A stretch of 64,000 nt of DNA, from IMG/VR virus record IMGVR_UViG_3300010354_000061, positions 14,848 to 78,847 of that record; one strand, given 5' to 3'. Below are positions 11,995 through 50,171 of the stretch, in pieces (within the stretch, counting starts at the first letter, position 1; each line of letters begins with the position of its first letter). This DNA is from a virus. Position numbers and translations under genes: made by a program. The notes under the pieces were generated by a model. It was not told the DNA's origin. It did no database searches and was given only the letters and a program-made list of their open reading frames with translations.

Positions 11995-13787
11995 TATGCG
12001 TAAATACCTCTTACAGAGACATGGATATCGGATTCACGTGTTTGAAGTATTTCATTTAGTGTTACAGTAATATCTTTATTTTTAGGGGTGGCATTAAATG
12101 CAACTCCTTCGCCACTATAACTTGCAATTCTCAAATTATCAATTGTAACAATCCCGGTGTTATAATTTACGGAACCAACAGGGAACGTCTTATCACCTAA
12201 AACAGCATTTAGTATACCAGCTTCATCATCTTGCAAATACACATTTCTGTAGAGACTGTTTTGATAAAATAGAGTGAAGCTATCGCTAACTACGCTCGTA
12301 ATTGGATTTGCAAACGAAATTGTTGTATTGAGGTTTTCGCGTGTTGCTGTTTGTTCAGGTGTTGGAACAAGATATCTAATCAGCTTAATTGACGTGTCGT
12401 TACTAATAATTCCGTCGTACGTATCATCAATAGCTGTCGTCAGCTTTGAGTAACGCAGTGTAACGTCAAAGTCATTAATATTCGTGTTACAAAATGTTTG
12501 AATAGTTGTCTTAACAGCTGCTTTAATATCTCCTTCAGCAGCTGTTGATGTATTAATATTATACACAATATTTGAAGAAACATCACAATACAGGAAGGAT
12601 GGGTTAATAAAGATAGGGTCAATTGTTAGCGGCATTTTTTCTTTAAGGAACTTACGGTATTTTTCAGCTAAAGTCGGGGGTATACCGTCTGCATTAAACA
12701 CATCAATTGCTACCATTACTTTACCAAACTGAGGAGGGTCATTCTCCTCACCACCATATGCATGAACAGAATCAATCTCTGGAAAGTTTGTTCTCAGCAA
12801 TGTTTCATAGTCACTTGTTGTAATTGCACGCTCTTGTGTCTGGAAATAGCGAGGAGCATTAAAGCGCACAGATTCGATTGTTTCTGCAGGAGCTCCTGAC
12901 TGAGCAGCTTCGAGAACTGCAATCGCTACTTGACCTCCCGAGTAAGAACCAGCTGTTCCGGCAATTGAATCATCAAGTCGAAAACTGTCTGCACCGTTTG
13001 GAGCACTTCCATTGGTAACTCTATACTCACAGGAAATTACAGCACCGTTTTTAGGTTTTTTACCTGTTACGTTGTTACCAAACACAATCTCGTATTGTTC
13101 GTTTTCTGCTCCTTGGACAAAGAACACCTTATCAGTAGCAGTTACATTAAAAAAGGAGGACGACAAAACATATGATTGAAGCTGTGTATTTCCATCTTCA
13201 ATTACTGAAACCTTGATGCTAGATGTGTCAAGATTTGGATTCGATAATACAAACCGCTGAGTTGGATTGCTGTCATCAACGACAAACGTGTCAGCAGCCG
13301 TAAATCCTTCATAGATCAAAACTGCATTGCTAAAAAACTGATTAAGTTGCGTATTTGCTGGGTTTAACCGTCTATCCATTACAATAGTTTGATCAGTTGT
13401 AAACACATAAGTGTTTGATCCAACAGTTGTTGTAAATGAAGTTCCTCTTCGAATTGTTAATGAATCTTCATAAACCGTTGGAGTAACAACAAGCCCCAAT
13501 GTAGCAACGGAGCTGATTGCTGAACGAGGAGTATAATTTAATTCCTTTGCATGACTTACAATACTATCACGCAACAACGCTGTATCCATAAACATTTCGT
13601 TGCCAATCATGTTCAGGTAAAACCCATTATGATATGTATTATAGGCAAGAATGTCTAAGAGAACGTTAATATTGGACGCTTCAAAATCAATATCTTGAAA
13701 TAATGCATTATTTCTAAGGTATTCTTTTAGGTTGTTTTTATACGTCGAAAAATCTAACGTAACTAAGTTTGTTGAAGTATTCGCCAT
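11994..13787 (-). CDS. Baseplate wedge subunit gp6
   Basis: LDF..K.NL, DFEASNINVLLDILAYNT, A.LRDSIVSHAKEL.Y.PRS, Q.RAIT..DY, GGEE..PPQFGKV. Confidence 0.92.
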   Translation of the reverse strand: MANTSTNLVTLDFSTYKNNLKEYLRNNALFQDIDFEASNINVLLDILAYNTYHNGFYLNMIGNEMFMDTALLRDSIVSHAKELNYTPRSAISSVATLGLVVTPTVYEDSLTIRRGTSFTTTVGSNTYVFTTDQTIVMDRRLNPANTQLNQFFSNAVLIYEGFTAADTFVVDDSNPTQRFVLSNPNLDTSSIKVSVIEDGNTQLQSYVLSSSFFNVTATDKVFFVQGAENEQYEIVFGNNVTGKKPKNGAVISCEYRVTNGSAPNGADSFRLDDSIAGTAGSYSGGQVAIAVLEAAQSGAPAETIESVRFNAPRYFQTQERAITTSDYETLLRTNFPEIDSVHAYGGEENDPPQFGKVMVAIDVFNADGIPPTLAEKYRKFLKEKMPLTIDPIFINPSFLYCDVSSNIVYNINTSTAAEGDIKAAVKTTIQTFCNTNINDFDVTLRYSKLTTAIDDTYDGIISNDTSIKLIRYLVPTPEQTATRENLNTTISFANPITSVVSDSFTLFYQNSLYRNVYLQDDEAGILNAVLGDKTFPVGSVNYNTGIVTIDNLRIASYSGEGVAFNATPKNKDITVTLNEILQTRESDIHVSVRGIYA

Positions 13788-20340: not shown

Positions 20341-20359
20341 TATTTATATTGACTAAATA
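20341..20359. promoter_or_regulatory. Divergent T4-type late promoters
   Basis: TATAAATA on - strand (20341-20348) before gp48; ACTAAATA on + strand (20352-20359) before gp4. Confidence 0.7.
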
Positions 20360-23138: not shown

Positions 23139-23305
23139 ACTATAACTCAATCTCCAACTATTATTATGTTAACTTTAGTTTAGCTCAGCATCACAAGTAT
23201 TCAATAACGGAGATTGAAAATCTTATACCATTTGAGCGAGACCTTTATGTAGAAATGTTACGCGACTATCTTGATAAAGAAGAAGAAAGGTTAAGAGCCA
23301 GATAG
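23120..23305 (+). CDS. gp51-like hub assembly catalyst; no start codon, probably reached by -1 frameshift from gp26
   Basis: -1 frame reads YVGLNYNSISNYYYVNFSLAQHHKYSITEIENLIPFERDLYVEMLRDYLDKEEERLRAR*, the gp51 motif of T4-like phages. Confidence 0.8.
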   Translation, partial: FFYVGLNYNSISNYYYVNFSLAQHHKYSITEIENLIPFERDLYVEMLRDYLDKEEERLRAR

Positions 23306-25317
23306 TGGACGAAAAACAGCCAAAAGTCATGGATGCATTGAAGAAAAACGTTTTTAAAAACGTCGTGAGTTACTTGCGAGCTCAAGCTCCAGCCATCTTC
23401 AACAAAAAACAAGATAATAAACAACAAGCTCAGATTAAAAGGAACACAGACGCTCTTGTTGAAGTAAGAAAAGAAATTGTAAAGCTTCGAACAGCATTAC
23501 GAAAAAACCAACAACTAATTCAATCCCTTCAAAGAAACATTCAAGTTGGAGTTTCTCAAAGCCAACCAGCCCAAACCTTCACTCCATCAGCTATCCAACA
23601 AACTGTTGGACGTGTTGGTGTGCTTGGCGGCCGCTATTTGTTTGATAGAGCTACACGACAATATACTACTCCCCAAGGAAGACCTGTAGCCACAGCTGCA
23701 ATAAAAGAAAGTGTTGCTGGAGCTTCACCTCAAAGCGGACTTTCAGGTCTTGGTTTGGGAGCAGCTGCCCTTGCAACATCTGGTCTTGGAATGTTTTTAA
23801 GAGGCAAATACCGCACAAAAGCAATTGGTGCTGGTGCTAGAATGATGAAAGATCTCGGTGTTCCAAAGTTTGCAAGAAGAGCTGTAATGCAAGGAGCTGG
23901 GCGAATGGCTCTTGGTGCAGGTGTAAGACTGCTAGCAAACCCCTACACTCTGGGTCTCACGGCAATTGCTGGAATATTGTTACCAAGGGATGTCAAGAAT
24001 ATTATTGGAGGCGTTCTTGAAGGATTTTTGAAAGGTGTTGGTTTAGATAAAGATTTGGTCGATACAGTAATGTCTGTGTATGATAAGCTGGTCGATTTGA
24101 GTGAACGATTTAAAGAGGTTGTTGTTGACATTGCCAAACGGTTGTACGCGATTGTCCAAACATTTTTGACGCCTGAAGGTAGAGAAAGAGTTCAGCAAGC
24201 TCTTCGAGGCGTGCGAGGAACGGAAGGAATAGTTCCTGGTTCCAGCAGTGGAGCGGAGATGGGAGGTATACCCGGCAACCCACCGTCCCCCGATAGGTAT
24301 CAACCATCGCCTGCAACAACACAGCAACCATCTGAGCAACGAGCTGCTTACGACACAGCTAAAAAACAATTAACAGAATCAAAAAAGACGCTCGACGATA
24401 AAATTAAAACATATCAAAGAATTGTTAGTGAAAACAATTTTCCTAAAACAGCAACAAATGAGCAAAAAGAAGAATTCAAGCAGAGTATAGGCAAACTGAT
24501 TGAATTACAAGATAACATTGATAAACAATTAAAGCAACCAGCATCTTCTCAAGTTAATTATAAGGCGGAAGCGGAAAAGCTTAATAACCTTTCAAATGCA
24601 GTTAGAAATGAAACTGATAAAACAAGAATATTATATAACAAGATGGAGAAGAGTGGAGAACCTGTTTCTCAGTCGCCTGCACAAATACCTCCGGAACCTC
24701 AAACTAGTAGAGGTCCAGAAACACAGGCACCAACTCAACCACCACCGGCTGGTAGTGTTCCGGAAATCCAAACGCCTGTTCAACAACCATTAGCAGGTGG
24801 GGTTCCAGTAGTTCCTGAAACTGAAGGTTCAACTCAACCCTCGTCTGCTGACGGAGCTCCTGTAACCAAACCTAGCATTTCCTCAACACTTAGCAATGAA
24901 CAACCCAAAGAACCACCCTCAGTGTCCGGAGAAGAGACAGGAACTGAGCCTGTTATTCCAGTTGATAAACTTACAGTTACAGGACAAAATTTTTATCCCG
25001 ATTTTAAAGGACCAATTTCTCCAGCAATGACAAGGAGATTGCGCGAACAAGAACCCCGAGCATATCAAGAATATCAACAATATCAGCAAGAACCGATGGA
25101 GCCAGCCGTATCAACCGGCAAAGAATTGATTGAGCGTAGCCAAAATTTAGCACAGATGCGTTACAGTCCACGTACCCAGAACGTCGATAATAATTATATT
25201 GACAATTCCCGAAAAATTACCCCTGATGTTAGTGAAGAAGCAATACGTCATATACCCTCTCCCGTAGCTTCGAGAGCTGATCTTGATGTTGATACAATTT
25301 TTAATGCAATAGCATAG
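23305..25317 (+). CDS. Tape-measure-like or ejected virion protein
   Basis: Follows gp26/gp51; coiled-coil, Gly/Ala hydrophobic segments and Pro/Gln-rich C-terminus. Confidence 0.5.
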   Translation: MDEKQPKVMDALKKNVFKNVVSYLRAQAPAIFNKKQDNKQQAQIKRNTDALVEVRKEIVKLRTALRKNQQLIQSLQRNIQVGVSQSQPAQTFTPSAIQQTVGRVGVLGGRYLFDRATRQYTTPQGRPVATAAIKESVAGASPQSGLSGLGLGAAALATSGLGMFLRGKYRTKAIGAGARMMKDLGVPKFARRAVMQGAGRMALGAGVRLLANPYTLGLTAIAGILLPRDVKNIIGGVLEGFLKGVGLDKDLVDTVMSVYDKLVDLSERFKEVVVDIAKRLYAIVQTFLTPEGRERVQQALRGVRGTEGIVPGSSSGAEMGGIPGNPPSPDRYQPSPATTQQPSEQRAAYDTAKKQLTESKKTLDDKIKTYQRIVSENNFPKTATNEQKEEFKQSIGKLIELQDNIDKQLKQPASSQVNYKAEAEKLNNLSNAVRNETDKTRILYNKMEKSGEPVSQSPAQIPPEPQTSRGPETQAPTQPPPAGSVPEIQTPVQQPLAGGVPVVPETEGSTQPSSADGAPVTKPSISSTLSNEQPKEPPSVSGEETGTEPVIPVDKLTVTGQNFYPDFKGPISPAMTRRLREQEPRAYQEYQQYQQEPMEPAVSTGKELIERSQNLAQMRYSPRTQNVDNNYIDNSRKITPDVSEEAIRHIPSPVASRADLDVDTIFNAIA

Positions 25318-25319
25318 CA

Positions 25320-27236
25320 ATGTCTCTCGAACAGTTAAATCGACAATCAATGATCTTAAGAGACATAACGAGCGAGTTACGTCGCGCGGGATCGTTTGTT
25401 GCTGTAACGAACAATCAAATAGGAAAGAGAGCGACACGAGGTGTTGGAAAGCCTTCTTCTTTTTCTAATGTAAGAAAAGCGATGTCTGCTGTTGCGAAAA
25501 GATTGGTTGCTCAACCTGCAAAACAATTACAAAAAGGCATGACTGCAAGAGCACGATTAGCTTCTCCGTTATCTCCCGAATATCAGATGGGAGGTACGGA
25601 ACAACCGGCCAGTCAACAGCAACAACAACCAAGTCCGCAAGATATTTTAAAGTCTGCATCTTTATTAGCTGGTGCAGTTGCATTATCTAAAACAGATTTT
25701 AGCTCCTTAGTTTCAGGAATGCTATCAAGAATTATTACAAAAGATATTGCTGATAAAATTGAAGAGAGAGCTGAGAGTATATCAAATGATTTGGATGGAG
25801 CGAAAGAAGATGTTGGTATTTTAGAAAAAATACTAGGTATTGCAAAACCTAAAGAAACAGAACCACCTAAAGAACCACCCACGCCTACACCTAAAGAACA
25901 ACCACCCACGCCTACACCTAAAGAACAACCACCTACGCCTACACCTAAAGAGCCACTCAAAGAGCCACCTGAGCCGCCCAAAGAACCTCTACCCAAAGAG
26001 CCGCCAACTAAACCACCTAAAGAACAACCATCTAAAAAGCCGGCTAAGCCTGTCACTGAAGTTGCTCCGCCTACCATTGAACCACCTCCAAAAACTCAAG
26101 AACCACCCAAGCTGGAAGAACCTCCAAAAATTGAGCCTATTCCATCTAAACCTATAACCCAAGTTGCTCCGCCTACCATTGAACCACCTCCAAAAACTCA
26201 AGAACCACCCAAGCTGGAAGAACCTCCAAAAATTGAACTTCCTCCGCCTAAACCTATAACCCAAGTTAATCCACCTACAATTGAACCACCTCCAAAAACT
26301 CAAGAACCACCCAAGCTGGAGGAGCCCCCAAAAATTGAACCTGTTCCACCAAAAAAACCCGCAGAGCAAGCAAAGCCTGTGGGCAAACCTCCTTTTGTAC
26401 AAAAGCCATCATCAGCTGCAGTCCCTGAAGCTTCGGTTGCCGTAAATTTTATCAAAGCAAAGGAAAGATTTAGCGGCAAAGCATATTGGGACGTAAAGGG
26501 TTACAGTGTTGGCTATGGACATTTCATACAACCAAAAGAGGCTGAGCAAAAATTTATTGATCTTGGCGGTGGTGAAAAAGTTGTGGTGGTGGGGGACAAA
26601 GGTAAAGATACTACAATAACTAGAGAACAAGCTGACAAACTGTTTGCTAAAGATTTAAAATACTTTGAAAAGGGGGTAGCTAGTTCTTTAGGAGAGTCGT
26701 GGGACAAACTTAACGAAAATCAAAAAGCAGCATTAGTTTCTTATGCTTATAATACTGGTATGGGGGGATTTAGAGACAGCCTCATTAAAAAAGGATTGAA
26801 AGACGCTATTAATGCTGGAGATACGGAAAAGGCTGCAAAGCTAATAGAAACTGGTATTGCAACAACACAGCGTGGATATTCCCAAGGTCTAGCTGCACGT
26901 AGAAAAGAAGAAGCGGATTTGTTTAGGAAAAAAACAGTTGTTTCGTCACTTGATCAAGATAAGGCCCCACAAACTCCTGATGGTGAGAGGCAAGAACCTC
27001 CACAAGTGGCAGATACTTCTCCTTCTGCAACAAGGCAAGCGGCACTTGAACCACCAGCTGAGCAAGGCCGTTCTCTCGACTCTCGCTCAGCCTTGGTTGC
27101 CTATGAACAACAGAAACAAAGTGAGGAAGCACCTCCCGTGATTAACGTTGTCGATAACAGCACAATCGTCAATCAACGCAGGCAGGCGCCCCCTCAGACA
27201 AGCAGTCCTAGTACAATATACTCTTCGCTTACCTAA
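25320..27236 (+). CDS. Tail-associated protein with Pro-rich repeats and GH24 lysozyme domain
   Basis: FIKAKE.F...AYWD..GYSVGYGH, IT.EQAD.L, LNENQ.AALVS.AYNTG, GL..RR.EEA.LF. Confidence 0.8.
   Translation: MSLEQLNRQSMILRDITSELRRAGSFVAVTNNQIGKRATRGVGKPSSFSNVRKAMSAVAKRLVAQPAKQLQKGMTARARLASPLSPEYQMGGTEQPASQQQQQPSPQDILKSASLLAGAVALSKTDFSSLVSGMLSRIITKDIADKIEERAESISNDLDGAKEDVGILEKILGIAKPKETEPPKEPPTPTPKEQPPTPTPKEQPPTPTPKEPLKEPPEPPKEPLPKEPPTKPPKEQPSKKPAKPVTEVAPPTIEPPPKTQEPPKLEEPPKIEPIPSKPITQVAPPTIEPPPKTQEPPKLEEPPKIELPPPKPITQVNPPTIEPPPKTQEPPKLEEPPKIEPVPPKKPAEQAKPVGKPPFVQKPSSAAVPEASVAVNFIKAKERFSGKAYWDVKGYSVGYGHFIQPKEAEQKFIDLGGGEKVVVVGDKGKDTTITREQADKLFAKDLKYFEKGVASSLGESWDKLNENQKAALVSYAYNTGMGGFRDSLIKKGLKDAINAGDTEKAAKLIETGIATTQRGYSQGLAARRKEEADLFRKKTVVSSLDQDKAPQTPDGERQEPPQVADTSPSATRQAALEPPAEQGRSLDSRSALVAYEQQKQSEEAPPVINVVDNSTIVNQRRQAPPQTSSPSTIYSSLT
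25860..26345 (+). repeat. In-frame tandem repeats: 27-nt (PKEQPPTPT) units, then three 102-nt units
   Basis: 102-nt units start at 26061, 26163 and 26265 and encode V(A/N)PPTIEPPPKTQEPPKLEEPPKIE. Confidence 0.9.
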
Positions 27237-39628: not shown

Positions 39629-40547
39629 TCTTTACGCCAAATTTATTCAAAACGAGCAAAAAAGGCTAAAAAATTCAACGGTCGTTGCTTCTCGGTATTT
39701 GAGCGAAGCTCAAACTACACCTGGAGCGGGAGCTCCAGGACCCACCTCAGGGGGCGGAGCTCGAAGTGGTATGGGAGGATTACCTCTCAAACCTCGCTAT
39801 ACTATTCGAGATGGGAAAATTGTTCCAAAAGAACCAACTGTATCTCCTTCTGCCTCTCCTACAAAACCTAAACCCGAATTGAAAATGGAACCGTTACAGG
39901 TTGGAAAAGCAGTAGTAGGAGCAGCCGGCTTGGTAGGCGGAGGGGCAGCAATTCTCAGTGGAACAGAAAAAAGAAAAGAAGCAGAAGCAGAGAGAGCCCC
40001 AAAGCAAGAAACACCAGTAGCAGAGCCGCCAAAAAAAGAACCTCCAAAAGCTGAAGTATCTCCAGAGCCTTCGAAGCCAGAAGCTGCAGCAGAAGCTCCA
40101 AAATCTAGCGAAGAAGATGAAGAAGCAGAAAAGTATGTTGCTCCTGTTGAGAGAAGATATCGCTCCATCAAGAAAGAATCTCTTGAACGTTTCATCAACG
40201 TGCAAAAGCCACGTGTTCCAAACAGCTCCAAGTTTCCAGATGTTTTTACAGAACAAGAAGCTGTTAAGGCCCAACCTATTAAAGCAAAGCCTGTCTCTGA
40301 TGAGGTAAAGGCAGAACCAGTTAAGTCTGGAACTGAACTTGATTCAGAGCTTGAAGATATGCCAGGAACTGATCCAAAGGAGCAAGGAGCTAAGTTTCAG
40401 CCCGTAACAAGAAGTCCCGAGTACATGGATTACTTAAGACAGAACCAGGAAAAAATTATAGCAGCCAAGCGTGCACGTGAAGAGGCTGGAGCATTCAAGT
40501 CCAAAATCCAAGCTTCAAGCACTTCAGCTGACGTAGATTCTCTTTAG
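39612..40547 (+). CDS. Putative internal head protein, low complexity (start reassigned to 39612)
   Basis: MTKKIDLYAKFIQNEQKRL...LSEA leader; Pro/Glu/Lys-rich. Confidence 0.55.
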   Translation: MTKKIDLYAKFIQNEQKRLKNSTVVASRYLSEAQTTPGAGAPGPTSGGGARSGMGGLPLKPRYTIRDGKIVPKEPTVSPSASPTKPKPELKMEPLQVGKAVVGAAGLVGGGAAILSGTEKRKEAEAERAPKQETPVAEPPKKEPPKAEVSPEPSKPEAAAEAPKSSEEDEEAEKYVAPVERRYRSIKKESLERFINVQKPRVPNSSKFPDVFTEQEAVKAQPIKAKPVSDEVKAEPVKSGTELDSELEDMPGTDPKEQGAKFQPVTRSPEYMDYLRQNQEKIIAAKRAREEAGAFKSKIQASSTSADVDSL

Positions 40548-40700
40548 GATTTTACAAACATTATCGGCAAGCCAAACGCGGGCACATACCCTTAACAAAT
40601 CGTTTGGCTCGTTGTCTACAATGTGCAGCAACTTCTTGATCAAATCTGTATCACAATTTTCATAACGAAGTTCAGAAATGAATTCTGGTGTTATTTCCAT
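40524..40700 (-). CDS. Small hypothetical protein (58 aa; not in ORF track)
   Basis: AAGGAG RBS; MEITPEFISELRYENCDTDLIKKLLHIVDNEPNDLLRVCARVWLAD. Confidence 0.55.
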   Translation of the reverse strand: MEITPEFISELRYENCDTDLIKKLLHIVDNEPNDLLRVCARVWLADNVCKILKRIYVS

Positions 40701-40837
40701 TCTGCTCTCCTTAATAGGTGCCGGTTACGCACTTCCGGCGAACTCTAGGAATGCTACGCGCATTCACACCGACAGAGGTTTTGGTCACATACAGGGTTCG
40801 CTTCCGGAACTCCCCCAGTATGCCAAATCATGTTGTT

Positions 40838-40931
40838 CCGCGTTGACTAACCGCTTAGCCGGCCACTTAGTAGCAACCCAAAGCGCGGCGGTTAGTTTCG
40901 ACCCCTTCCCGGGTCATCGTCAGAACGCTGG
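40838..40931 (-). ncRNA. Type I hammerhead ribozyme
   Basis: GCGTT-CTGACGA-(T)GACCC/GGGTC-GAAA-CTAACCGC/GCGGTTAG-TC-AACGC; all core nucleotides, three stems and a GUC cleavage triplet. Confidence 0.88.
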
Positions 40932-41354
40932 TTATTCGGCCTTTGTAAAAAAGGCTCTCATTAACTGCTCATCGGTCCAGCTTGAAATATAATCATTATC
41001 TTCCCTACAAATTTGAAGCGCTTCTTCTTTTGTAACAACACGGTGACTGAGGATTGTTTCACCAAGATCTTTTTGACTAAACTCTTTCGCTTCTTGGTAT
41101 GTTACATCATCAAGCGCCCATTCAGCTTTTCCTTTGGGAACTTCAACACAGTACCGCATGCGATAGGTTTGAACACACTCAACAAGAACAAGTTCGGTTT
41201 CTTGTTCCTCTACCTTCGACAGTGAGTAAGAACCGTCGCCGTTGTCTTTCCAACGAAGAGTGTCACCCGGTGACCATCCTACAGCTTGCATCTCTTCGTT
41301 GGAAAATTCAATAAACTGCTCGCCGTTTGGTAAGGCTTGAATTCGCTTCATCAT
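40932..41354 (-). CDS. Protein with N-terminal AbrB/SpoVT-like domain
   Basis: IEF...M..VGW.PGDTLRW.D..DGS..L.K. Confidence 0.6.
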   Translation of the reverse strand: MMKRIQALPNGEQFIEFSNEEMQAVGWSPGDTLRWKDNGDGSYSLSKVEEQETELVLVECVQTYRMRYCVEVPKGKAEWALDDVTYQEAKEFSQKDLGETILSHRVVTKEEALQICREDNDYISSWTDEQLMRAFFTKAE

Positions 41355-41566
41355 AATATAAAGTACTCCTTATCGCTTGTCGGTCTGATCCAGTTCGTCT
41401 TTGACACCTGGACTAATCATATTAGGATCGGAAGGATTACGCTTCTTCGAATTCCACAGCTTGTATCCAACATAAACAAACAGTAGAATTCCTACGAAAA
41501 TAAGAAGATTTTCCATTATAGCCCTTTCTTGATAAGAGGGAACATCCCTCTAGCCAAGTATATAGG

Positions 41567-41830
41567 CTATACGCCGAGCCCCATTCCTGCCATAATAAAG
41601 TCCTGAGTTTTTTTCAAAACAACAGCTTTATTGTCCGTTGCGTGGATAGCAGCAATGATCTCATCCTTGCGTTTCTGTTTGCCACCACCTTGCTGAATCA
41701 CGTCTTGGCAAATTCCACGAAATTCATTAATACCAGCTTTATCATACTGCTCGTACAGCATGGAGAGCGTGTTGTTGCCAAGCGTATCATTCTTAAGCCG
41801 CGGCTTGCTAGATTTCTGAGTTGCGAACAT
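41567..41830 (-). CDS. Hypothetical protein
   Basis: ORF in minus-strand early region. Confidence 0.55.
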   Translation of the reverse strand: MFATQKSSKPRLKNDTLGNNTLSMLYEQYDKAGINEFRGICQDVIQQGGGKQKRKDEIIAAIHATDNKAVVLKKTQDFIMAGMGLGV

Positions 41831-41986
41831 TAGTGCACCGTTTCCCGTTTGTCATTATAAAGAAAGTTAATTGCATCATATACGAGATTGACGTCACAGT
41901 CAAGCGACAGTGCAATCTGTTCAGAATCCATTCCAGATTCAAACATTTCGGTGATTTCCATCACAAGTTGTTTCATGTAGCTCATT

Positions 41987-42175
41987 TTAGTCCGTATAAA
42001 CAGTCACTTCAACGGTACCGTCTGTATTGCGACGGACCCGGCCTCCGAATGGAGCCTTTCCCCAACCATCACATTCACGAATCAGATCATAGTCAGACTT
42101 GTTTGCATCGCTTTCTTCAAGCTTGATAGTGTATACATCCCTGTTGTATTGTGTTGAACTCTTAATAATTTTCAT
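41987..42175 (-). CDS. Hypothetical protein
   Basis: Directly behind early promoter at 42206. Confidence 0.55.
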   Translation of the reverse strand: MKIIKSSTQYNRDVYTIKLEESDANKSDYDLIRECDGWGKAPFGGRVRRNTDGTVEVTVYTD

Positions 42176-42546
42176 AACGCAATTATCCTTCGTTTTGACA
42201 TTAATGTCAACTATTTACTGATTACCCCCAGAACAGGTATTTGGCCGCAACAGCAATGAACATCAGATAGGCAACGATCTTAATCAAGCCCCAGATGCCA
42301 TCCCATACAATTGACCACTCGTTGGTTGTCATAATGTCTCCACGATGTATGTGAGAGCCACAATCAGCAAGAAGTCAGCTGGCGTCATTTGCATGCCTTT
42401 CACTAAAAGTTTTCATCCATTCAACGACAAGCTCACGTGCTTCCATTTTTTTCACGCCAAACGCTTCTTGAACATACGGCGTAGCACCAAACATGTTGAC
42501 AATCCCAGATTCACGCAGATCGTCAAGAAACTGAAACACTTCTTCC

Positions 42547-42903
42547 TTATTCATGATTGCTCCTCAAAGAACCTGCACCATTATCACCAGCCATTCCTAC
42601 AGACCCACCAACACCACCGACACCTCCAACACCGATAGAAACAGATCCAATCGGACTGATATCCAACCACTCACCACATGGAGCTTCCGGATTGAAGTCG
42701 TTTCTCACCTTGTTAATACCATATTCCTCTACAACAAACGAATCCCAAGGCTGAATAACATAGTCCGGCTCACGCTGCGTCTGCCGAGCGCGGATAGTTT
42801 TTTCGGCGCGTAGCGCCGCTTCGCGCGTGGAAAAACACCCAATGATGTACTTTTGCATCGCTAACCTGTTCACTACACCATGCAGCACGTAAACTTTCTC
42901 CAT
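42547..42903 (-). CDS. Hypothetical protein
   Basis: KVYVL...IIG.FSTRE.A motif common in small phage proteins. Confidence 0.5.
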   Translation of the reverse strand: MEKVYVLHGVVNRLAMQKYIIGCFSTREAALRAEKTIRARQTQREPDYVIQPWDSFVVEEYGINKVRNDFNPEAPCGEWLDISPIGSVSIGVGGVGGVGGSVGMAGDNGAGSLRSNHE

Positions 42904-42974
42904 CTCACACCCCCAAAAATCACCAAATGACGGTTATACAATACCAAAGAAAAGAAAAAATGACAACATCAAGA

Positions 42975-43205
42975 ATAATACGGCTAAAAAAGCGGGCCCC
43001 CGCAGTTTTAGCGGGCCCCCACACAGAATCATGCGGTTAAAAAAGCCCCCCCGCGTTTTTTTGCGGGCGCCCGGGTAGTTTATAGAACATGGTGGGGAAT
43101 CATGCGGTTAAAAATGGGGGCCCCCGGAGTTAATTGGAGGAAGCGATGTGAATTTTACTAGAAACGCGTAAACCCCCTGTTTAAAAATGCCCCCGCCGGG
43201 GTTCA
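42975..43205. repeat. Non-coding locus of alternating A/T and G/C tracts with direct repeats
   Basis: GAATCATGCGGTTAAAAA at 43026 and 43097; AGCGGGCCCCC at 42991 and 43010. Confidence 0.8.
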
Positions 43206-43293
43206 GCCTACAGCCTGTCCGCAACAATCTGCAGGAAGACAACAGCTGTGCCTATGTTGCAGACGACGCCAATGATCCAGTCTCCGAAGTCGT

Positions 43294-43569
43294 TCATTGC
43301 ACCGTCATCCTTGCAAACGCGATCTCCATCTCCGCAATGTACTCCTGAAGGAGGTCCGCGATGTCGTTGCACATTGCCATCTGCTTGGCAGACCGTTTCG
43401 CCAGCATCTGCTTCGCATCGTCAAACGACACGGTGTCGATGGGGTTAGTGACTACGTACTTCTCCGACTTTGAGAGGGCCGCCAGAAGGTCGACAGCCCT
43501 ATCAGCACAGCCGAAGCACATAGCGACCGTGTCATTGTACAGCCGGTCAGAGACGATCACTCGATACAT
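43294..43569 (-). CDS. Hypothetical protein
   Basis: Coupled ORF in early cluster. Confidence 0.55.
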   Translation of the reverse strand: MYRVIVSDRLYNDTVAMCFGCADRAVDLLAALSKSEKYVVTNPIDTVSFDDAKQMLAKRSAKQMAMCNDIADLLQEYIAEMEIAFARMTVQ

Positions 43570-43766
43570 TACGCCTTCTCCTTCTGAAACACGCTCGATT
43601 CCAGCAGGACCGCAGTGACATGATCACGCTCACACTTCGACAGCTTGGTGAACATCGATACCATCATCGACTCGAAGTAGCCCGCAGCAAACGCGTGAGA
43701 GTCGTACTTCTCGAGAGCAGCCTTCTTCCACAGTTCCACGACAGACTTGAAGTTTTCGACGTTCAT
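43569..43766 (-). CDS. Hypothetical protein
   Basis: AAGGAG RBS, promoter at 43815; YDSHAFAAGYFESM. Confidence 0.6.
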   Translation of the reverse strand: MNVENFKSVVELWKKAALEKYDSHAFAAGYFESMMVSMFTKLSKCERDHVTAVLLESSVFQKEKA

Positions 43767-43990
43767 GTGTTCTCCTTGATTGGAAAGTCCAGTATACTGA
43801 GCTGTCACAATTAGGTCAACTCAGTCCAGCTCATTCCCAATAAAGTCGTTCGCCAGCATCATCTGCCGGACCTCATCCTCAGCCATCCAGCCAACACACG
43901 CCCTGATCAGCATGTCCTTGTCAATTGCACCCTCTTCAACCCAGTCAAGCAGCTGGTGCGTGTACTTCCGCGAGACAAAAGGATGCGTCA

Positions 43991-44272
43991 TTAGTAGCAA
44001 TCCTCAGCAGAACCGTAATCCTCATCCGTCCCCCAACCAGCCGACGCCAGAGCCTGCCCATCGGCGTACGCATCGTCGTCCTCGTACGCATCGTCGTCAA
44101 CCCAGCTGAGGTCCATCGCCACATCCCTGCAGAGCTCCTCATCGAACTCCTCAGCTGTCAGCAGGACCGGCTCAGCCGCATCGTAGCCACGGAACCCACC
44201 AATCCAGTTCCTGTTCTGAACGTACGCCCAGTTGAGGTAGAAATTAAGCTTCTCGTGCGGTTGCATTTCCAT
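43991..44272 (-). CDS. Acidic hypothetical protein
   Basis: Ends ALASAGWGTDEDYG; RBS and promoter at 44323. Confidence 0.6.
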   Translation of the reverse strand: MEMQPHEKLNFYLNWAYVQNRNWIGGFRGYDAAEPVLLTAEEFDEELCRDVAMDLSWVDDDAYEDDDAYADGQALASAGWGTDEDYGSAEDCY

Positions 44273-44323
44273 CTGTCGTCTCCTTAGTCAGTAAGGACAG
44301 CATACGGTATTGTCAAAATATTG

Positions 44324-44647
44324 TCAACTCGAGGTGTGTGAGCACTTACCCCTGTAGTAGAACCCTGGACACGTACACCGGATCTTGCCATTTTTCTCGG
44401 AAACATAGTATACTTTACCGTTTTTCCCACTGACTGGCGTGCCTTCCTCCTTGATTTCGTCAGGAACAGACCGTAAAACCTTGAATTTACGGCCTTTTCT
44501 GTCGAATTTGATCGGCCCATGCAGCGTGATCTTCTCTTTTGACCCCTCTGGAATGTATGCAAACAGCTCGGTCATCGAGTCGTTGAGAAAGTACTCGTGG
44601 TTTGGCGTGCTGCCTTCCCACTCAGTCGTCTCGAGAACGTGCTTCAT
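44324..44647 (-). CDS. SWIM zinc-finger protein
   Basis: CTCPGFYYRGKCSH. Confidence 0.7.
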   Translation of the reverse strand: MKHVLETTEWEGSTPNHEYFLNDSMTELFAYIPEGSKEKITLHGPIKFDRKGRKFKVLRSVPDEIKEEGTPVSGKNGKVYYVSEKNGKIRCTCPGFYYRGKCSHTSS

Positions 44648-44850
44648 TGCATCAGCAGCCGGGCTTCCACGCTCTTCACCCAGCCTGAAACATCGCTGGT
44701 CCCGATCTCTTCCACGCTGCCGACGAACTCAGCGACCTCGTTTGCAGCGTTCAGAACAGCCTCAGGACCGTAGCTGGACAGCATATCGCAGCGTTGCATG
44801 CAGATTCGGTTGAGAATCGCGTTGGCGACAATAGCACTCATTACACACAC
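44644..44850 (-). CDS. Hypothetical protein
   Basis: GAGGAG RBS; VEEIGTSDVSGW. Confidence 0.55.
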   Translation of the reverse strand: MCVMSAIVANAILNRICMQRCDMLSSYGPEAVLNAANEVAEFVGSVEEIGTSDVSGWVKSVEARLLMQ

Positions 44851-45494
44851 TCCTCAGTAGCTGCATTGCACAGCATGTTGACGTACGCACAGAACTCTTC
44901 CGTTTCCCGCCAGGCCTGCTCTTCGAGCTCGATCTGGTGTTGCAGGGCAGCAAAAACGTCGTCTTCGTTCATATGTGATCTCCTCATAACGTAGGACCAC
45001 TATCGCATTTCCACAAAATATTGTCAACCGGTTGCCTTCTTTTTGTCAATCCCAGATAGTATCCCCATCGGTTCGAACGGCGATGTCCGGGGATGGACGG
45101 CGAGAGCGGATCAATGGTTAGTAACCACTTACCCCCCGGTTGACCTAAATTCAGAGTTCGTTGCCAATACAGGATTTTGCAGAAAGGTAAGTGGCCACTC
45201 ACCTACCTACGGTGATGAGTGTGCAGAGATGTGCAGCTGGAAGGCAGCGATTGTCAGCGGCTGGGAGAGCTGCTGACTACCCACACCGCTACCAGTCTAA
45301 ATATATGGTTAGTGAGTACTTACGGATTTTGGTTTACATACAATTGCCGGGAATCCAGCCTATGACACCGCTAGAACACCATCTACGGAACGTACAATGC
45401 TTCAAGCGATGCATGACTAACCTATTGGTGAGAGATCCGGTCACTAACACTGTTCTCAATAGGTTCCTTGATGATCAGCTTGCTTATGGACTTG

Positions 45495-45725
45495 CTACTT
45501 GTAATGGTCTTCACACAGCATGGCAATCTTGGCTCTCACCTCATCACCGAAGATAGATGCAAGAGTCGTTTCAGCTAGGTCCTGATGATAGCGAATCCGA
45601 TCGTCATTGGGTAAGGGATCCAGGCCGTTCTTCTTGTCATCATTGTCATACATCTCTACGGTTTCCATAGCATCTTCAAAGCACAAAACAGCTACCTGGT
45701 TTACAAGCTCATCAAACGTTGTCAT
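45495..45725 (-). CDS. Hypothetical protein
   Basis: AGGAGG RBS. Confidence 0.55.
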   Translation of the reverse strand: MTTFDELVNQVAVLCFEDAMETVEMYDNDDKKNGLDPLPNDDRIRYHQDLAETTLASIFGDEVRAKIAMLCEDHYK

Positions 45726-45930
45726 TGTTGCCTCCTAGATTCCAAAACTGAATGATTGCATCGCCCATCTCATCTGTGTAGTACGTATCATAGATTGACA
45801 CTACATCCTGCTTCAAGAACTCGATGACAGCTTGTTGAAAGTGCCAATCATCAACATCGATTCCAAGATCTTGACACACATCCGCAATATGATCAACCAC
45901 GTCATCCGGTATATTAACAGTGATTTCCAT
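45712..45930 (-). CDS. Hypothetical protein
   Basis: GAGGA RBS; acidic. Confidence 0.55.
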   Translation of the reverse strand: MEITVNIPDDVVDHIADVCQDLGIDVDDWHFQQAVIEFLKQDVVSIYDTYYTDEMGDAIIQFWNLGGNNDNV

Positions 45931-45936
45931 GATTCC

Positions 45937-46803
45937 TCAGTTAGCAAGAACATACTCAGCAAGCTTCTCCCAACCAGGCTGGCCAGAAGCACGAATCTTC
46001 GTAACGGTGATCAGACTACGAAGCGACAGGTCACTACACTGCTCACGATTCCGCTTGAGCAAGTCAAGAGCCTCGAGCTTGTACGTGACCGGAATGTTCG
46101 GCAAGAACCCCTCAGAACGGAGAATCGTGTCCATCCGCTCGATCTTCTGATCAGCAGTCATCTCCAAGTCAATACAAATAGAACGCGTACGCAAAGCCTG
46201 ACCGATCTTGTCCTGCGACTTGTTCGAAATGAAGATCACAGCACCACGAAAGATGAAAGAACGCGGCAGCTGGTCGTCAACAGACGTGTTCCACGTGATC
46301 AAACGCTTGTCATACGAGTCAAGAGCACCCTTCAGCAGGTTCAACGCATCAGGATCGGTGAGAACAGAGTCACAATCGTCAAAGACGACAATGTTGTTCT
46401 GATTCTCGAACAACACACGATACAAGCCCTTCGCAGTCGAGAAACCCTTGATAATCCGGAAAGACTTCATCCCAGCAATAGACGTGCCAAGATCCAACTC
46501 AGAGATGTCAGACAGACCAGCGGCCTTGAGACCGGACATCACAGCATGAGTCTTGCCAAGACCGCCAGGTCCCGTGATGATCATCGACGGAATCTGCTTC
46601 TGCGCGATCATCTGGATGATCTGGCCGATGTACTGAAACCGATCATTGATCGGAAACTGCTTCGCCTTCGATTCTTGCACCTCGCCCTCAGACTCGTACT
46701 GAGCGAGCTTGCTTTTGGCATAATATTTGTTTGCGCTGTCGAACACAGACTTGCCGTCGACAACGATATGCCACCTACCACCACGAAGTTCAAGTTTAGC
46801 CAT
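45937..46803 (-). CDS. P-loop/AAA+ ATPase-like protein
   Basis: Walker A GPGGLGKT, Walker B IVVFDDCD, LNLLKGALDS, IFISN. Confidence 0.8.
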   Translation of the reverse strand: MAKLELRGGRWHIVVDGKSVFDSANKYYAKSKLAQYESEGEVQESKAKQFPINDRFQYIGQIIQMIAQKQIPSMIITGPGGLGKTHAVMSGLKAAGLSDISELDLGTSIAGMKSFRIIKGFSTAKGLYRVLFENQNNIVVFDDCDSVLTDPDALNLLKGALDSYDKRLITWNTSVDDQLPRSFIFRGAVIFISNKSQDKIGQALRTRSICIDLEMTADQKIERMDTILRSEGFLPNIPVTYKLEALDLLKRNREQCSDLSLRSLITVTKIRASGQPGWEKLAEYVLAN

Positions 46804-46889
46804 TTGTGTAGTCCTCATCAGTAATAAGTAGACTATACCGCTGTGACAAATTTATGTCAACGGAAAAGAACACCAGAGGAATCAAGAGG

Positions 46890-47138
46890 TTAGAACGGTT
46901 TGGGATTGTGCTGAGTCTCGGCCCAGCGATTGTCACGGTACTCGAAATGCTTCTGAATTCGCTGGCCAGTCTGCCAATCGGTCATAGCCAAGCATTCCTG
47001 GATGATAGATTCAGCGAACTTTCGAACCTCATCGACGTCAGCATAACCACAGACGAAGTACCGACGTGGAGTCTCGAGGTCGTTATAGTTGAGCAAGCCA
47101 GCATCAGAAGCCAGCTTGAGGATCTTGTCGTTCACCAC
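46890..47138 (-). CDS. Hypothetical protein
   Basis: N..I..LA..AG...KFAE.IIQEC motif. Confidence 0.55.
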   Translation of the reverse strand: MVNDKILKLASDAGLLNYNDLETPRRYFVCGYADVDEVRKFAESIIQECLAMTDWQTGQRIQKHFEYRDNRWAETQHNPKPF

Positions 47139-47407
47139 TGATGTTCCACGACAAGATGGTCGACTTTCTGGATTGCAGACTCACCACCGACAGGCCGGTA
47201 GATCATCATCTCACCATCCCACTGATCCTGATCGAACAGCTTGTCTTCCGGTCCAACTACGGTGAAACGGACGACTCGGCCAGTGTGGTGGCTCTCGACA
47301 AAGAACTCCTTCGGAAAACAGCCAGCAAAGAACTCTGAAGCGAGGCGAAGCTGGCGACGCTCTTTGACATAGTCACAATGCTTGAGACTGACAGTAATCA
47401 GAGACAT
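47132..47407 (-). CDS. Hypothetical protein
   Basis: Behind promoter at 47458 with AAGGA RBS. Confidence 0.55.
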   Translation of the reverse strand: MSLITVSLKHCDYVKERRQLRLASEFFAGCFPKEFFVESHHTGRVVRFTVVGPEDKLFDQDQWDGEMMIYRPVGGESAIQKVDHLVVEHQW

Positions 47408-47462
47408 TTCGGTTCCTTTTTGATTGAACGGTCACAATACGGAATGGTCAAAATTAGGTCAA

Positions 47463-47738
47463 CTACTTCCAGATCCTATGCTTCTCAGCGACCCACTCCA
47501 TGCCGTCGTACTCCTGAATCGTCCACTCAACGTCATCAGGAATCTCGACGATCTTGAGATCGGAATAGTTGTCGTTGGCCTTCTCACCCAGCTGTTCAAC
47601 AACCTGGACAAGAGCCTCATCATCACGATAGACGTGAAAGCTGTTAAAGTCTTCCCCAGTCAGCTGTTTGAACAGATCCTCACCCTTATGGCTAAGGCCG
47701 AACCCACCATGACACTTGTTAATCACGACTTTTTGCAT
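47463..47738 (-). CDS. Conserved phage hypothetical protein
   Basis: KVVINKCHGGFGLS...RDD..LVQVVE.LG...LKIVEIPDDV.W.I.EYDG.EWVAE.HR.W. Confidence 0.7.
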   Translation of the reverse strand: MQKVVINKCHGGFGLSHKGEDLFKQLTGEDFNSFHVYRDDEALVQVVEQLGEKANDNYSDLKIVEIPDDVEWTIQEYDGMEWVAEKHRIWK

Positions 47739-47981
47739 TTACGTTAACTCCTGATGCACTTCAACAACCCTCTCAACATTCCTGCACTCAGCAATCAAGT
47801 CCATCGCCATTGCAGCGATGTCTTCAAATGCACGACGCTCTTCACGGCTCATATCATTGACAAACTCAAGAACCGCCTCTGGACTGTTGATCTGGGCCTC
47901 TCGCATCGCTGAAATAAGCTGATCGATCGCTCGGTGCGTGTTCTCGAACATGCAGTACGACATATTTGGATAGTTGTTCAC
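47739..47981 (-). CDS. Hypothetical protein
   Basis: NMSYCMFENT motif. Confidence 0.6.
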   Translation of the reverse strand: MNNYPNMSYCMFENTHRAIDQLISAMREAQINSPEAVLEFVNDMSREERRAFEDIAAMAMDLIAECRNVERVVEVHQELT

Positions 47982-48166
47982 ACAGCCTCCGGACAGTCAA
48001 CAGTACGCTGGAACGAATCAATCTTGCTATACCGATCACCCACTTCCTCGTGCGTTGCTAGTATCAGCTTCGCCTCAAACTTGTTGGCAGCATTCTTAGA
48101 CGAGAACACTTTGCAAAGAGATTCACGCTTCAGATGATCATATGCAGTGACAATAAACACTTTCAC
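47978..48166 (-). CDS. Hypothetical protein
   Basis: Behind promoter at 48217. Confidence 0.5.
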   Translation of the reverse strand: MKVFIVTAYDHLKRESLCKVFSSKNAANKFEAKLILATHEEVGDRYSKIDSFQRTVDCPEAV

Positions 48167-48217
48167 GTTTGTTCCTTTCTGATTGAAAGGCCATGATCTT
48201 ATAGTGACAAAATTAGG

Positions 48218-48430
48218 TCAACTGACGAGCTTGCCACGCTTTCCATATGCACCTCCAGCATAGTAGCTACACCACCCATCAGGGTCGATGTCTCCAGCTA
48301 CAGCTGTGCATTTGTTTGGATCACGCCACATCGTGCAATTGATGCACTTCTGCTTGTTCTTTGGGTGATCCTGGTAGTTTGCCTCAGACTTTGAGGACTT
48401 GGCTTCTGAAATGAATTCGATGAATCGCAT
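48218..48430 (-). CDS. High-potential iron-sulfur protein (HiPIP)-like with capsid-targeting-like leader
   Basis: YQDHPKNKQKCINC...PNKCTAVAGDIDPDGWCSYY (4 Cys, HiPIP spacing); leader MRFIEFISEA; AGGAGG RBS; TCTAAATA at 48453-48460. Confidence 0.8.
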   Translation of the reverse strand: MRFIEFISEAKSSKSEANYQDHPKNKQKCINCTMWRDPNKCTAVAGDIDPDGWCSYYAGGAYGKRGKLVS

Positions 48431-48569
48431 ACACACCTCCTAGCGTTTCATCTATTTAGAAAGAATGCCGGTTACGAGTCCGGCGCTAGCATTGTCGTCG
48501 TCTAGCCGTATCACGATTCGCTCTAAGTCACCCGAACGGTTTGGCGACCGTCACCGTCCTGGATACCAA

Positions 48570-48929
48570 CTACGCAAGCTCTTGCGAGCTCACTTCACTA
48601 AACGGAATCCGCTTCTCGCGGAACGTGATCACGCCGTCGTACTCCAACTGAGCCCGCTCAAAATCCGGCACGTAATCATCACACTCGACAGACCAGTCAA
48701 TCACGTACTCACGGAAGCCCACATTGTCCTCCTCGAACTGAGGGACCAGCGCTTCCGCGAACTTGCGGACATCACTACTACAGAGGAACCCAATCGAGAC
48801 GTCCTCGATCAAGTACTCGTGACCGCCCTTCATCTTCCAGCGGGCGTTCTCACCCGTGCCGAGGTTACCCTCAGAATCCCAAGCGTAGTTCTCTTCAACC
48901 TGCGTGCGAAAGACGATCTTCATGTGCAT
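48570..48929 (-). CDS. Conserved phage hypothetical protein
   Basis: KIV..TQ..ENY.......WKMKGG.EY. Confidence 0.6.
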   Translation of the reverse strand: MHMKIVFRTQVEENYAWDSEGNLGTGENARWKMKGGHEYLIEDVSIGFLCSSDVRKFAEALVPQFEEDNVGFREYVIDWSVECDDYVPDFERAQLEYDGVITFREKRIPFSEVSSQELA

Positions 48930-49091
48930 TCCTCAGTTGTCAATATAGACATCATAGAGAATTGTCAAAAAAAGGTCAACCCTACTTCATTCCTTTGACA
49001 TTCTTGCAGTACCACGTTCCGAGATTGAACCCGGCAACAAGGCCAAGAACTACACCTATAGCAAGAGTGAATACTGCTGTCATACTGCCTC

Positions 49092-49595
49092 CTATCGTTT
49101 GAACACGCGTGAACTGTAGTAGTACGCGTTCGCGAATGTGATCTTCAGCTCCTTCTGAATCAGCTTTGCCAAGTCGTTGTTCGACAGCGTAGCGTTAGCC
49201 TCACAAATCTCAAGAGCTCGATCCTTCTTCGTGTTGTTCTTGCCTTTACGAATGTCGGTCTTTGGTTTGTAAGTGCTCACTAACGGCTTGACCGTCTGTT
49301 GAACAATGCGTACGCGCTCAACTTCAGGAGCAGCAGCAATCAGCGACTGACACCGATGACGAGCAAGTGCTTGATCGGGCTTCTGCTTGTTGACGACCTG
49401 AGCCACCATGTACTTAGCAATAATCCTGGCAGCATCAGGATCCTTCTCAGCCTCACCGCCAAGACTCTTGATCACAGCATTCGCACGGTCATGCTGAGCT
49501 GCAAACGATTCTGGATTCTCGAGATATTCTCCGAGCTTCTGAACACCCTCAACACAATCCATACCCTTAGTGATACCATACTTTTCGAGGTTCAT
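49092..49595 (-). CDS. Hypothetical protein with C-terminal helical putative DNA-binding domain
   Basis: Behind promoter at 49646; C-term resembles that of 38226..38993. Confidence 0.6.
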   Translation of the reverse strand: MNLEKYGITKGMDCVEGVQKLGEYLENPESFAAQHDRANAVIKSLGGEAEKDPDAARIIAKYMVAQVVNKQKPDQALARHRCQSLIAAAPEVERVRIVQQTVKPLVSTYKPKTDIRKGKNNTKKDRALEICEANATLSNNDLAKLIQKELKITFANAYYYSSRVFKR

Positions 49596-49646
49596 GTATG
49601 TCCTTTCATAATTGAAAGTCCATATTACACAATTGTGACAATTAGG

Positions 49647-50171
49647 TCAACGACGTTTCCGTCTTGGGCGAAGTTGTGGTTCAGGTTTAGGTTTTGCTGC
49701 TTTTTTTGTTTCTTTCAAAATTCGCAACACTTTGGGATATACTTTCTCATATTGCTCACCAGTTTCTTTTTCAGCAATCTTTGCAATATCAACGCCACTC
49801 TTGCCAACATTCTCAACAACAATTGCTACCAGAGATTTCTTTCCAGTATCTTTGTTAGAAGGAAGTTGGTCATACTTTTCAATTGTCCATGGATTGTCAA
49901 AAACAAACTTGCGCCACTTTTCAACTATTGCATGATAATCTGTGAATGGTCTCTGGTTATTATAATCCAAAGCAAGTGTTTTGAACATGTAAATGTTTTG
50001 AGCATTGGGGTGCTCAATTGGATAATTAAGTTGAGCAAGAGCAATTTCAATATGTTTTAGTGTTGCTGGGTCATCTTGTAGCTTCAGTGTTAGATTGTAA
50101 AGTAACTGGTGATCAGACTGGCTTGGCTTTCCAATGATATTTTCAAGAGATTGCATTTCATATCTCCTCAC
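49647..50171 (-). CDS. Hypothetical protein
   Basis: Long ORF with basic C-terminus; true start may be MQSLE. Confidence 0.55.
   Translation of the reverse strand: MRRYEMQSLENIIGKPSQSDHQLLYNLTLKLQDDPATLKHIEIALAQLNYPIEHPNAQNIYMFKTLALDYNNQRPFTDYHAIVEKWRKFVFDNPWTIEKYDQLPSNKDTGKKSLVAIVVENVGKSGVDIAKIAEKETGEQYEKVYPKVLRILKETKKAAKPKPEPQLRPRRKRR

Follow-up and report, generated by a model that had tools for sequence, protein, structure and literature searches.

A 70-residue HiPIP (P0001) encoded in a 64,000-nucleotide stretch of viral DNA (the window) begins with nine residues that resemble the capsid-targeting sequence (CTS) of the T4 internal head proteins, and from its sequence the protein probably travels inside the virion and enters the host together with the DNA. 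No phage proteins reach a new host earlier than the internal head proteins, the best-understood of which counter host defences or reprogramme host enzymes. An electron carrier with a metal cluster would, if packaged, be a new class of internal-head cargo. In its full form the proposal is that P0001 is a cargo made late, loaded into the prohead, trimmed by a gp21-type protease and ejected, which we judge from sequence comparison to be rather likely. A sequence-only reading of the window had suggested that a redox protein is loaded into the head and delivered with the DNA; every part of it that is open to computation was favoured by the results described below.

The HiPIP gene and its product

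The window belongs to a 78.8-kb IMG/VR viral contig (CheckV completeness 47%) from a T4-like myovirus, with genes for the baseplate wedge protein gp6, a gp5-like hub, gp48, a gp53-like protein, tube proteins, the head closure protein gp4, the DNA end protector gp2 and gp32. The HiPIP gene occupies positions 48218..48430 on the minus strand (70 codons plus stop, with an ATG start at 48430 and the stop codon at 48218-48220) and is defined by an ORF call together with a match to PF01355 above the gathering cut-off. The ORF call bears out the earlier claim of a 70-residue frame starting MRFIEFISEA. Its neighbours are small ORFs without assigned function and genes for an AAA-like protein, an exonuclease, PhoH and ThyX. 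Megablast of the 10-kb HiPIP neighbourhood against phage records gave no match. The region holding the gene (window 40150-50150, contig 55001-65000) has a G+C content of about 47%, compared with 39-42% for most of the contig in 5-kb bins, and may be recently acquired or hyperplastic.

Direct reading of the sequence locates a Shine-Dalgarno sequence, AGGAGG (48436..48441, minus strand), with 5 nt between it and the ATG. A GTG in the same frame at 48436, 6 bases upstream, was rejected as the start codon; because it overlaps the Shine-Dalgarno sequence, the ATG at 48430 is the likely start. Further upstream, 22 nt before the ATG, lies a T4-late-promoter-like motif, TCTAAATA (48453..48460, minus strand), directly preceded by a terminator-like GC hairpin with a T-rich tail (48467..48484, minus strand) that would end the transcript of the upstream gene. 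The sequence CTAAATA is not enriched across the whole window (8 seen, 10.5 expected). Within 70 nt upstream of gene starts, the motif [ACT]TAAATA precedes 8 of 99 crudely called genes where 1.2 are expected, mostly 32-38 nt ahead of the start. The identifiable genes among these eight are gp48 and gp4, which flank a divergent structural intergenic region (20341..20359, given for reference only) carrying TATAAATA on the minus strand before gp48 and CTAAATA on the plus strand before gp4. These motifs are of the same kind and at the same distance as that of the HiPIP gene, which has the gp4 form, and the sharing supports late expression of the HiPIP gene in this contig. The earlier description of a late-type motif amid early genes thus stands for the motif, which is enriched before gene starts; the 'early' character of the neighbourhood is plausible only. 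The motif is not general upstream of homologs, as about 3 of 14 distinct loci carry it, and we rejected a late promoter as a conserved trait of the family. The HiPIP gene of cyanophage S-SRM01 overlaps the preceding small ORF.

Assignment of P0001 to the HIPIP family, made before from the letters alone, was confirmed by HMM search, with a score of 27.4 bits against Pfam PF01355 (gathering cut-off 22; E 4.1e-6; residues 13-58). The four Cys ligands C29, C32, C41 and C54 are in place with the spacing C-x2-C-x8-C-x12-C and the GWC motif, and their codons were confirmed on the DNA (48344-48346, 48335-48337, 48308-48310 and 48269-48271, minus strand). An alignment of 70 homologs, which takes in Tat-exported cellular HiPIPs, shows no change at Y19, C29, C32, C41, V44, G52 or C54 and hardly any at W53; the ten closest sequences all have W35. 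Built from the ten closest homologs, a profile matches PioC (PDB 6XYV) with an E value of 2e-12; the aligned part opens at profile position 11, immediately behind the leader, and reaches the end of the 54-residue mature PioC. The AlphaFold model built from the 70-sequence alignment has pLDDT above 90 for residues 11-60 and lower values at both ends (56 in residues 1-10, 58 in the tail), and the leader is not packed on the HiPIP domain. The top 18 Foldseek matches in the PDB are all HiPIPs (1ISU, rmsd 1.1 Å over 55 columns), and superposition of the model on small HiPIPs, including PioC and 1ISU, gave 1.1-1.9 Å. PHROGs contains no family that matches P0001.

Cellular HiPIPs typically have a Tat signal peptide and a periplasmic location, and the PioC type is the smallest known HiPIP class. 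P0001 shares fold and ligand pattern with PioC of Rhodopseudomonas palustris TIE-1 (6XYV, 54 residues) and with 1ISU of Rhodocyclus tenuis, and has the KxSKxEAxYQDxPK segment before the first Cys in common with Tat-exported cellular relatives. As the sequence-only reading had it, there is no Tat signal: P0001 contains no twin-arginine motif, and just 9-10 residues precede the signal-peptidase cut point of the cellular relatives. The Tat signal of those relatives, with its A-x-A end, stops at precisely the point where the phage leader stops, just ahead of the K-[AS]-S-K...YQD motif common to both. Since profile, fold, invariant residues and the Tat/leader boundary agree, the phage protein is a mature HiPIP in full, to which another N-terminal extension is attached. 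We rejected a vestigial Tat signal as an explanation of the leader, which has neither an RR motif nor a hydrophobic core, and likewise a plastocyanin-like role as electron donor in the periplasm or lumen, for which the export signal is absent. Unlike PioC, then, P0001 is phage-encoded and has no periplasmic destination; it ends in a basic tail, GGAYGKRGK, and carries a 9-10-residue acidic, aromatic leader exactly at the signal-peptide end point. The predicted mature protein (residues 10-70, 48221..48403, minus strand; 61 residues, 6.7 kDa, pI 9.0) is basic, and a basic C-terminal tail, GKRGK or KRSHRK, is conserved. By sequence and model P0001 is a PioC-type HiPIP without a Tat signal, and binding of a [4Fe-4S] cluster is predicted.

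The leader, virion proteins that share it, and the prohead protease

Codons 1-9 (MRFIEFISE; 48404..48430, minus strand) encode a capsid-targeting-like propeptide; the protease is predicted to cut after Glu9, so that the mature N-terminus would read AKSSK. In the T4 record (NC_000866) ipII and ipIII begin MKTYQEFIAEA, which contains the MKTYQEFIAE given in the sequence-only reading, and ipI begins MKTFKEFTSTT. Counted back from the cut, the HiPIP leader shares Glu at P1, Ile at P3, Phe at P4 and Glu at P5 with those of ipII and ipIII; its P7 is aromatic, and it is one residue shorter than the usual form. In the T4 CTS, positions 4 and 7 serve targeting and positions 8 and 10 processing (PMC9026906, a review of Black's work). 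These positions (P7, P4, P3 and P1) correspond to F3, F6, I7 and E9 of the HiPIP, so that the likeness noticed earlier is one at residues shown in T4 to govern targeting and cleavage. A survey of homolog leaders, proposed with that reading, agrees: all 11 closest homologs have [LIV]-x-E at the leader end with varying residues between, and Glu9 is invariant in an alignment of ten. The S-SRM01 HiPIP (QPX48026), among these 11, starts MKSFQEFLFEEE, and some homolog leaders are even nearer to T4 (MKTFKEYLTEE, MKTFREFLSEE).

The resemblance to T4 internal head proteins goes beyond the leader. As in T4, a tag of about 10 residues ending I-x-E|A precedes a small, basic product (PMC9026906), comparable in size to T4 IPI* in the phage HiPIPs; the promoter is of late type, the genome is T4-like, and in complete relatives the leader also stands on unrelated proteins. 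Unlike the T4 proteins, which are anti-restriction or DNA-binding, the cargo is a predicted cofactor-bearing redox protein; its packaging and cleavage are predicted.

Three other proteins of S-SRM01 share the leader type of its HiPIP, and one of them is an annotated cytidyltransferase (QPX48223; MKNFHQFITEA). Cytidyltransferase homologs of ACG-2014f, S-SSM2 (MKKFSTFISEA), S-RIM8, P-SSM7 and S-B68 begin M-[KR]-x-F-x-x-F-[IL]-[ST]-E-A. A position matrix was built from cytidylyltransferase leaders alone, with no HiPIP and no T4 sequence in training, and was used to scan every candidate start codon with at least 40 codons following. On the contig of the window, the HiPIP ranked first of 1877 starts (z 5.0). 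On T4 58-80 kb, ipIII and ipII ranked first and second of 393, and in S-SRM01 the HiPIP came fifth of 4510, after three other leader proteins and one membrane protein. Unrelated proteins bearing the leader number at least four in S-SRM01 and at least nine in G003, a complete 283-kb IMG/VR genome; no second leader-bearing ORF was found in the 78.8-kb contig, and no cytidylyltransferase homolog in that contig or in G003.

The remaining leader proteins of S-SRM01 (MW015081) include the products of 126582-126890 (QPX48173) and 176324-177667 (QPX48235), both without assigned function; QPX48173 (phrog_1742) is encoded inside the structural module, between the endonuclease VII and tail sheath genes. 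Examples from G003 (loci L074-L088) are 171103-172611, 214941-218110 and 223388-225319. This genome also has a 502-residue leader-bearing ORF directly upstream of gp21 and three leader-bearing paralogs of 475-643 residues (MK[PR]FKSFLLEY...), and its HiPIP is preceded by a 110-residue N-terminal domain that bears the leader (L015:9656-10186).

Further support for a link between leader and capsid is provided by cyanophage S-CREM2, for which mass spectrometry of CsCl-purified virions identified 52 proteins (PMC10665884). According to that paper, cyanophage virions 'frequently' yield kinases and cytidyltransferases, and its authors caution that abundant proteins may co-purify with virions (PMC10665884). 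The matrix was rebuilt without cluster-C phages and the whole S-CREM2 genome (OR473000, loci L096-L106) was scanned. The top 4 of 4841 starts belong to gp154 (cytidylyltransferase, 124608-125468), gp14 (kinase, 10579-12846), gp13 and gp6 (SAM hydrolase, 3837-5081), and the next annotated gene is gp136 (107301-108014). All five are in the virion list (PMC10665884); because 52 of the 221 S-CREM2 ORFs are virion proteins in that list, finding all five there has a probability of about 6e-4 by chance. In two regions followed gene by gene, the leader is present in none of 23 proteins that the same table does not report from virions. From this published table we infer an association of leader and virion presence in S-CREM2, and the accessible text of the paper does not mention a shared leader (PMC10665884). 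The virion-detected 'Cas9-like' gp12 of the table has RFASFMAEA about 18 residues in, and its start codon may be mis-called.

The virion-detected cytidylyltransferase, APH/ChoK-like kinase and SAM hydrolase of S-CREM2 thus have the same M-[KR]-x-F-x-x-F-[LI]-x-E leader as the HiPIP, in these enzymes in the form M-K-x-F-x-x-F-L-x-E (PMC10665884). They differ from it in that the S-CREM2 leader proteins are enzymes of 280-750 residues, and no HiPIP is among the S-CREM2 virion proteins. In T4-like cyanophages the leader appears to pick out the 'non-structural' enzymes that recur in virion proteomics, and capsid cargo may therefore be predictable from sequence alone in uncultured phages.

Cleavage of the leader would call for a suitable protease, and Glu-specific prohead proteases are known for T4 and phiKZ-like phages (PMC9026906). 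PF03420, the family of gp21-type S77 proteases, was found in S-SRM01, in 3 of 4 IMG/VR records with leader-HiPIP genes and in 3 of 4 records with giant fused HiPIP forms. Overall, seven of nine other HiPIP-bearing records have it, those without it being fragments, and it is present in both complete HiPIP-bearing records tested (G003 and G006). The protease is also present in S-CREM2. The search for PF03420 gave no match in the 47%-complete contig of the window, and control genomes were likewise unmatched in this search, whose outcome does not bear on the complete phage; the head module is missing from this fragment, which contains neither gp21 nor capsid genes.

Relatives, fusions and cassette proteins

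A profile search of the full library recovered 1931 relatives, and HiPIP genes of this kind stand at 53 viral loci. A rough sort of 158 relatives gave about 43 of Tat type, 16 of leader type, 34 short and leaderless, and 35 of at least 140 residues. The identical HiPIP protein also occurs on a 132-kb contig. When 50,697 phage records were searched with three HiPIP queries (P0001, P0057 and P0114), the matches were limited to S-SRM01, a freshwater cyanophage and the one cultured carrier among these records, and one uncultured record; tblastn of two leaderless HiPIPs against phage isolates matched only S-SRM01 and LR756508. In LR756508, a 484-kb uncultured phage, the 131-residue product of L002:2797-3192 has a HiPIP-like C-terminal half with slightly different Cys spacing (C-x2-C-x13-C-x12-C) and an unrelated acidic N-terminal half, and its gene lies directly upstream of a putative Toprim-type primase gene.

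Several relatives join the HiPIP to head proteins. P0058 consists of portal, Mu F and HiPIP domains, and P0071, P0111 and P0118 combine NUDIX and HiPIP with DUF2213, which PHROGs labels a head maturation protease. These four proteins apparently come from non-T4-like phages or prophages. In P0014, P0022 and P0025 a leader-HiPIP is fused to a GH19 lysin, and in L014 to a kinase/phosphatase-like domain. Covalent fusion to portal-MuF or to a head maturation protease would be a second route of the HiPIP domain into capsids, and these fusions point the same way as the suggested loading into the head.

At about 30 viral loci the HiPIP cassette lies inside ORFs of 1000-2850 residues. Such giant proteins of T4-like jumbo phages (L027:7190-13558, L029:8861-17416, L037:3065-8713, L026:8624-11797 and about 25 further loci) open with a short leader whose end is F-x-E-A and continue with a cytidylyltransferase-like domain; ParB-like and Amidoligase_2 domains also occur, as do cassettes without assigned function. 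The cytidyltransferase and the HiPIP are separate leader genes in S-SRM01 and thus one polypeptide in other T4-like phages. The modules of the giants are shuffled, but the HiPIP cassette always lies between ...x-E|AAEKSTK and ...RKDL[DE]E|. Among 91 module breakpoints, 44 fall within 6 residues of [LIVFM]-x-E-[ASGTDE] compared with 9.8 expected, a count in which homologous junctions are entered more than once and at least 15 are distinct. The stand-alone gene of the window ends at the position of the next [IV]-x-E junction of the fused forms. These x-x-Glu joints look as if the giants were polyproteins cut by a Glu-specific prohead protease, the pattern expected of such proteins, and suggest protease-delimited cassette proteins in which T4-like jumbo phages shuffle capsid cargo as modules.

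This architecture recalls the polyvalent proteins, which carry 2-15 effector domains per polypeptide and have been proposed to be packaged and injected (Iyer et al. 2017, PMC5512222). Like these and like MuF-anchored cargo, HiPIP relatives are joined to ParB-like, NUDIX, lysozyme, MuF and portal domains; the HiPIP of the window, unlike polyvalent proteins, is single-domain, and it is the relatives L027, L029, P0058 and P0071 that fit. The terms HiPIP, iron-sulfur, 4Fe-4S and cysteine have zero occurrences in that paper (PMC5512222). Neither HiPIP nor iron-sulfur appears in the S-SRM01 paper, which contains no mass spectrometry of virions, and a full-text literature search for HiPIP with phage returned no relevant report, in line with the earlier statement that no case had been described. 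Loading by a CTS is already known, whereas the cargo class and three apparent capsid routes of the HiPIP cassette appear to be new.

The broadest reading of these data is that the HiPIP is a widespread injected redox effector with three routes into capsids (a CTS leader, fusion to portal-MuF or protease, and a cut polyprotein), and that its oxygen-tolerant cluster lasts through the free virion stage and arrives in working order. We put this forward tentatively and hold it to be doubtful as a whole. If it is true, the HiPIP would be the first known case of an Fe-S electron carrier among viral capsid cargo, and the cluster would either quench oxidative damage on packaged or incoming DNA or disturb a redox-sensing response of the host.

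Proposed packaging and alternative explanations

For the gene of the window, we propose that the HiPIP would be transcribed from its own late-type promoter and would fold and receive its cluster in the cytoplasm. Tat substrates do the same, folding and receiving their cofactor in the cytoplasm ahead of export. The 9-residue leader would then bind the HiPIP to the prohead scaffolding core, and a gp21-type protease would cut after I-S-E9, leaving the 61-residue, 6.7-kDa, pI 9 product among the packaged DNA, with which it would depart at infection. Among Fe-S proteins, HiPIPs tolerate oxygen best, and their cluster is buried. We infer that such a cluster, together with the minimal size of the protein, would fit survival in an aerobic virion and passage through the tail. 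Packaging would raise the matters of how an Fe-S cluster survives both and of what redox need exists in the first seconds of infection. For the role after entry we guess, with little confidence, at an effector of one-electron redox chemistry or an electron donor associated with DNA, and not at iron supply; the DNA protection, Fe-S supply and counter-defence named in the sequence-only reading are guesses as well.

Much of the genomic setting would also suit an auxiliary metabolic gene for a cytoplasmic electron carrier of the infected cell, whose decapeptide would be a conserved helix or an aid to translation or stability. The gene of the window is surrounded by small non-structural genes, with PhoH, ThyX and the exonuclease close by; that of S-SRM01 lacks its own promoter and stands in a row of small hypothetical genes; and at one locus the upstream gene is a putative AdoMet decarboxylase. 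Many leaderless HiPIP versions of 55-75 residues exist, and redox carriers, plastocyanin and ferredoxin among them, are known from cyanophages. However, a cytoplasmic carrier does not account for a leader common to T4 internal proteins and to the virion-detected enzymes of S-CREM2, or for fusion of the cassette to portal-MuF and to a prohead protease. There is no partner gene beside the HiPIP gene, the leader is left unpacked by AlphaFold, and HiPIP potentials are high (about +50 to +450 mV); we know of no cytoplasmic partner for HiPIPs. On balance we regard a purely cytoplasmic role as unlikely.

Loading into the prohead might also occur without any function as an injected effector. The protein would then be a core or scaffold accessory or a DNA-condensing filler that is degraded, expelled or inert, and its four Cys may hold the fold (with Fe-S or even Zn) without redox use. 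In T4, gp21 destroys most core proteins, and IPII and IPIII bind DNA at low salt and have no known target (PMC9026906); the mature HiPIP, too, is basic with a conserved basic tail. Against this, the aromatic shell that shields the cluster (Y19, W35 and W53) is kept and the protein is close to functional PioC, from which it follows that selection probably acts on the cluster itself. The cassette moreover travels with NUDIX, nucleotidyltransferase, ParB and lysin domains typical of ejected effectors (PMC5512222), and a loaded protein with no effector role seems to us distinctly improbable. A chance ORF or a functionless, decaying remnant of a captured bacterial HiPIP gene, as the short frame, the lack of a PHROGs family and the 47% G+C stretch (compared with about 40%) might suggest, has next to no probability given the 53 viral loci and 1931 relatives, the conservation of all ligand and core residues, which effectively refutes it, the strong Shine-Dalgarno sequence and a leader kept across phages that differ elsewhere.

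Elsewhere in the window, two large genes on the plus strand (23305-25317 and 25320-27236) adjoin the baseplate hub gene. The 670-residue protein encoded there has no PHROG match. In the 638-residue protein, residues 373-557 form a domain of lysozyme/endolysin type, and this protein may be a lysin carried by the virion.
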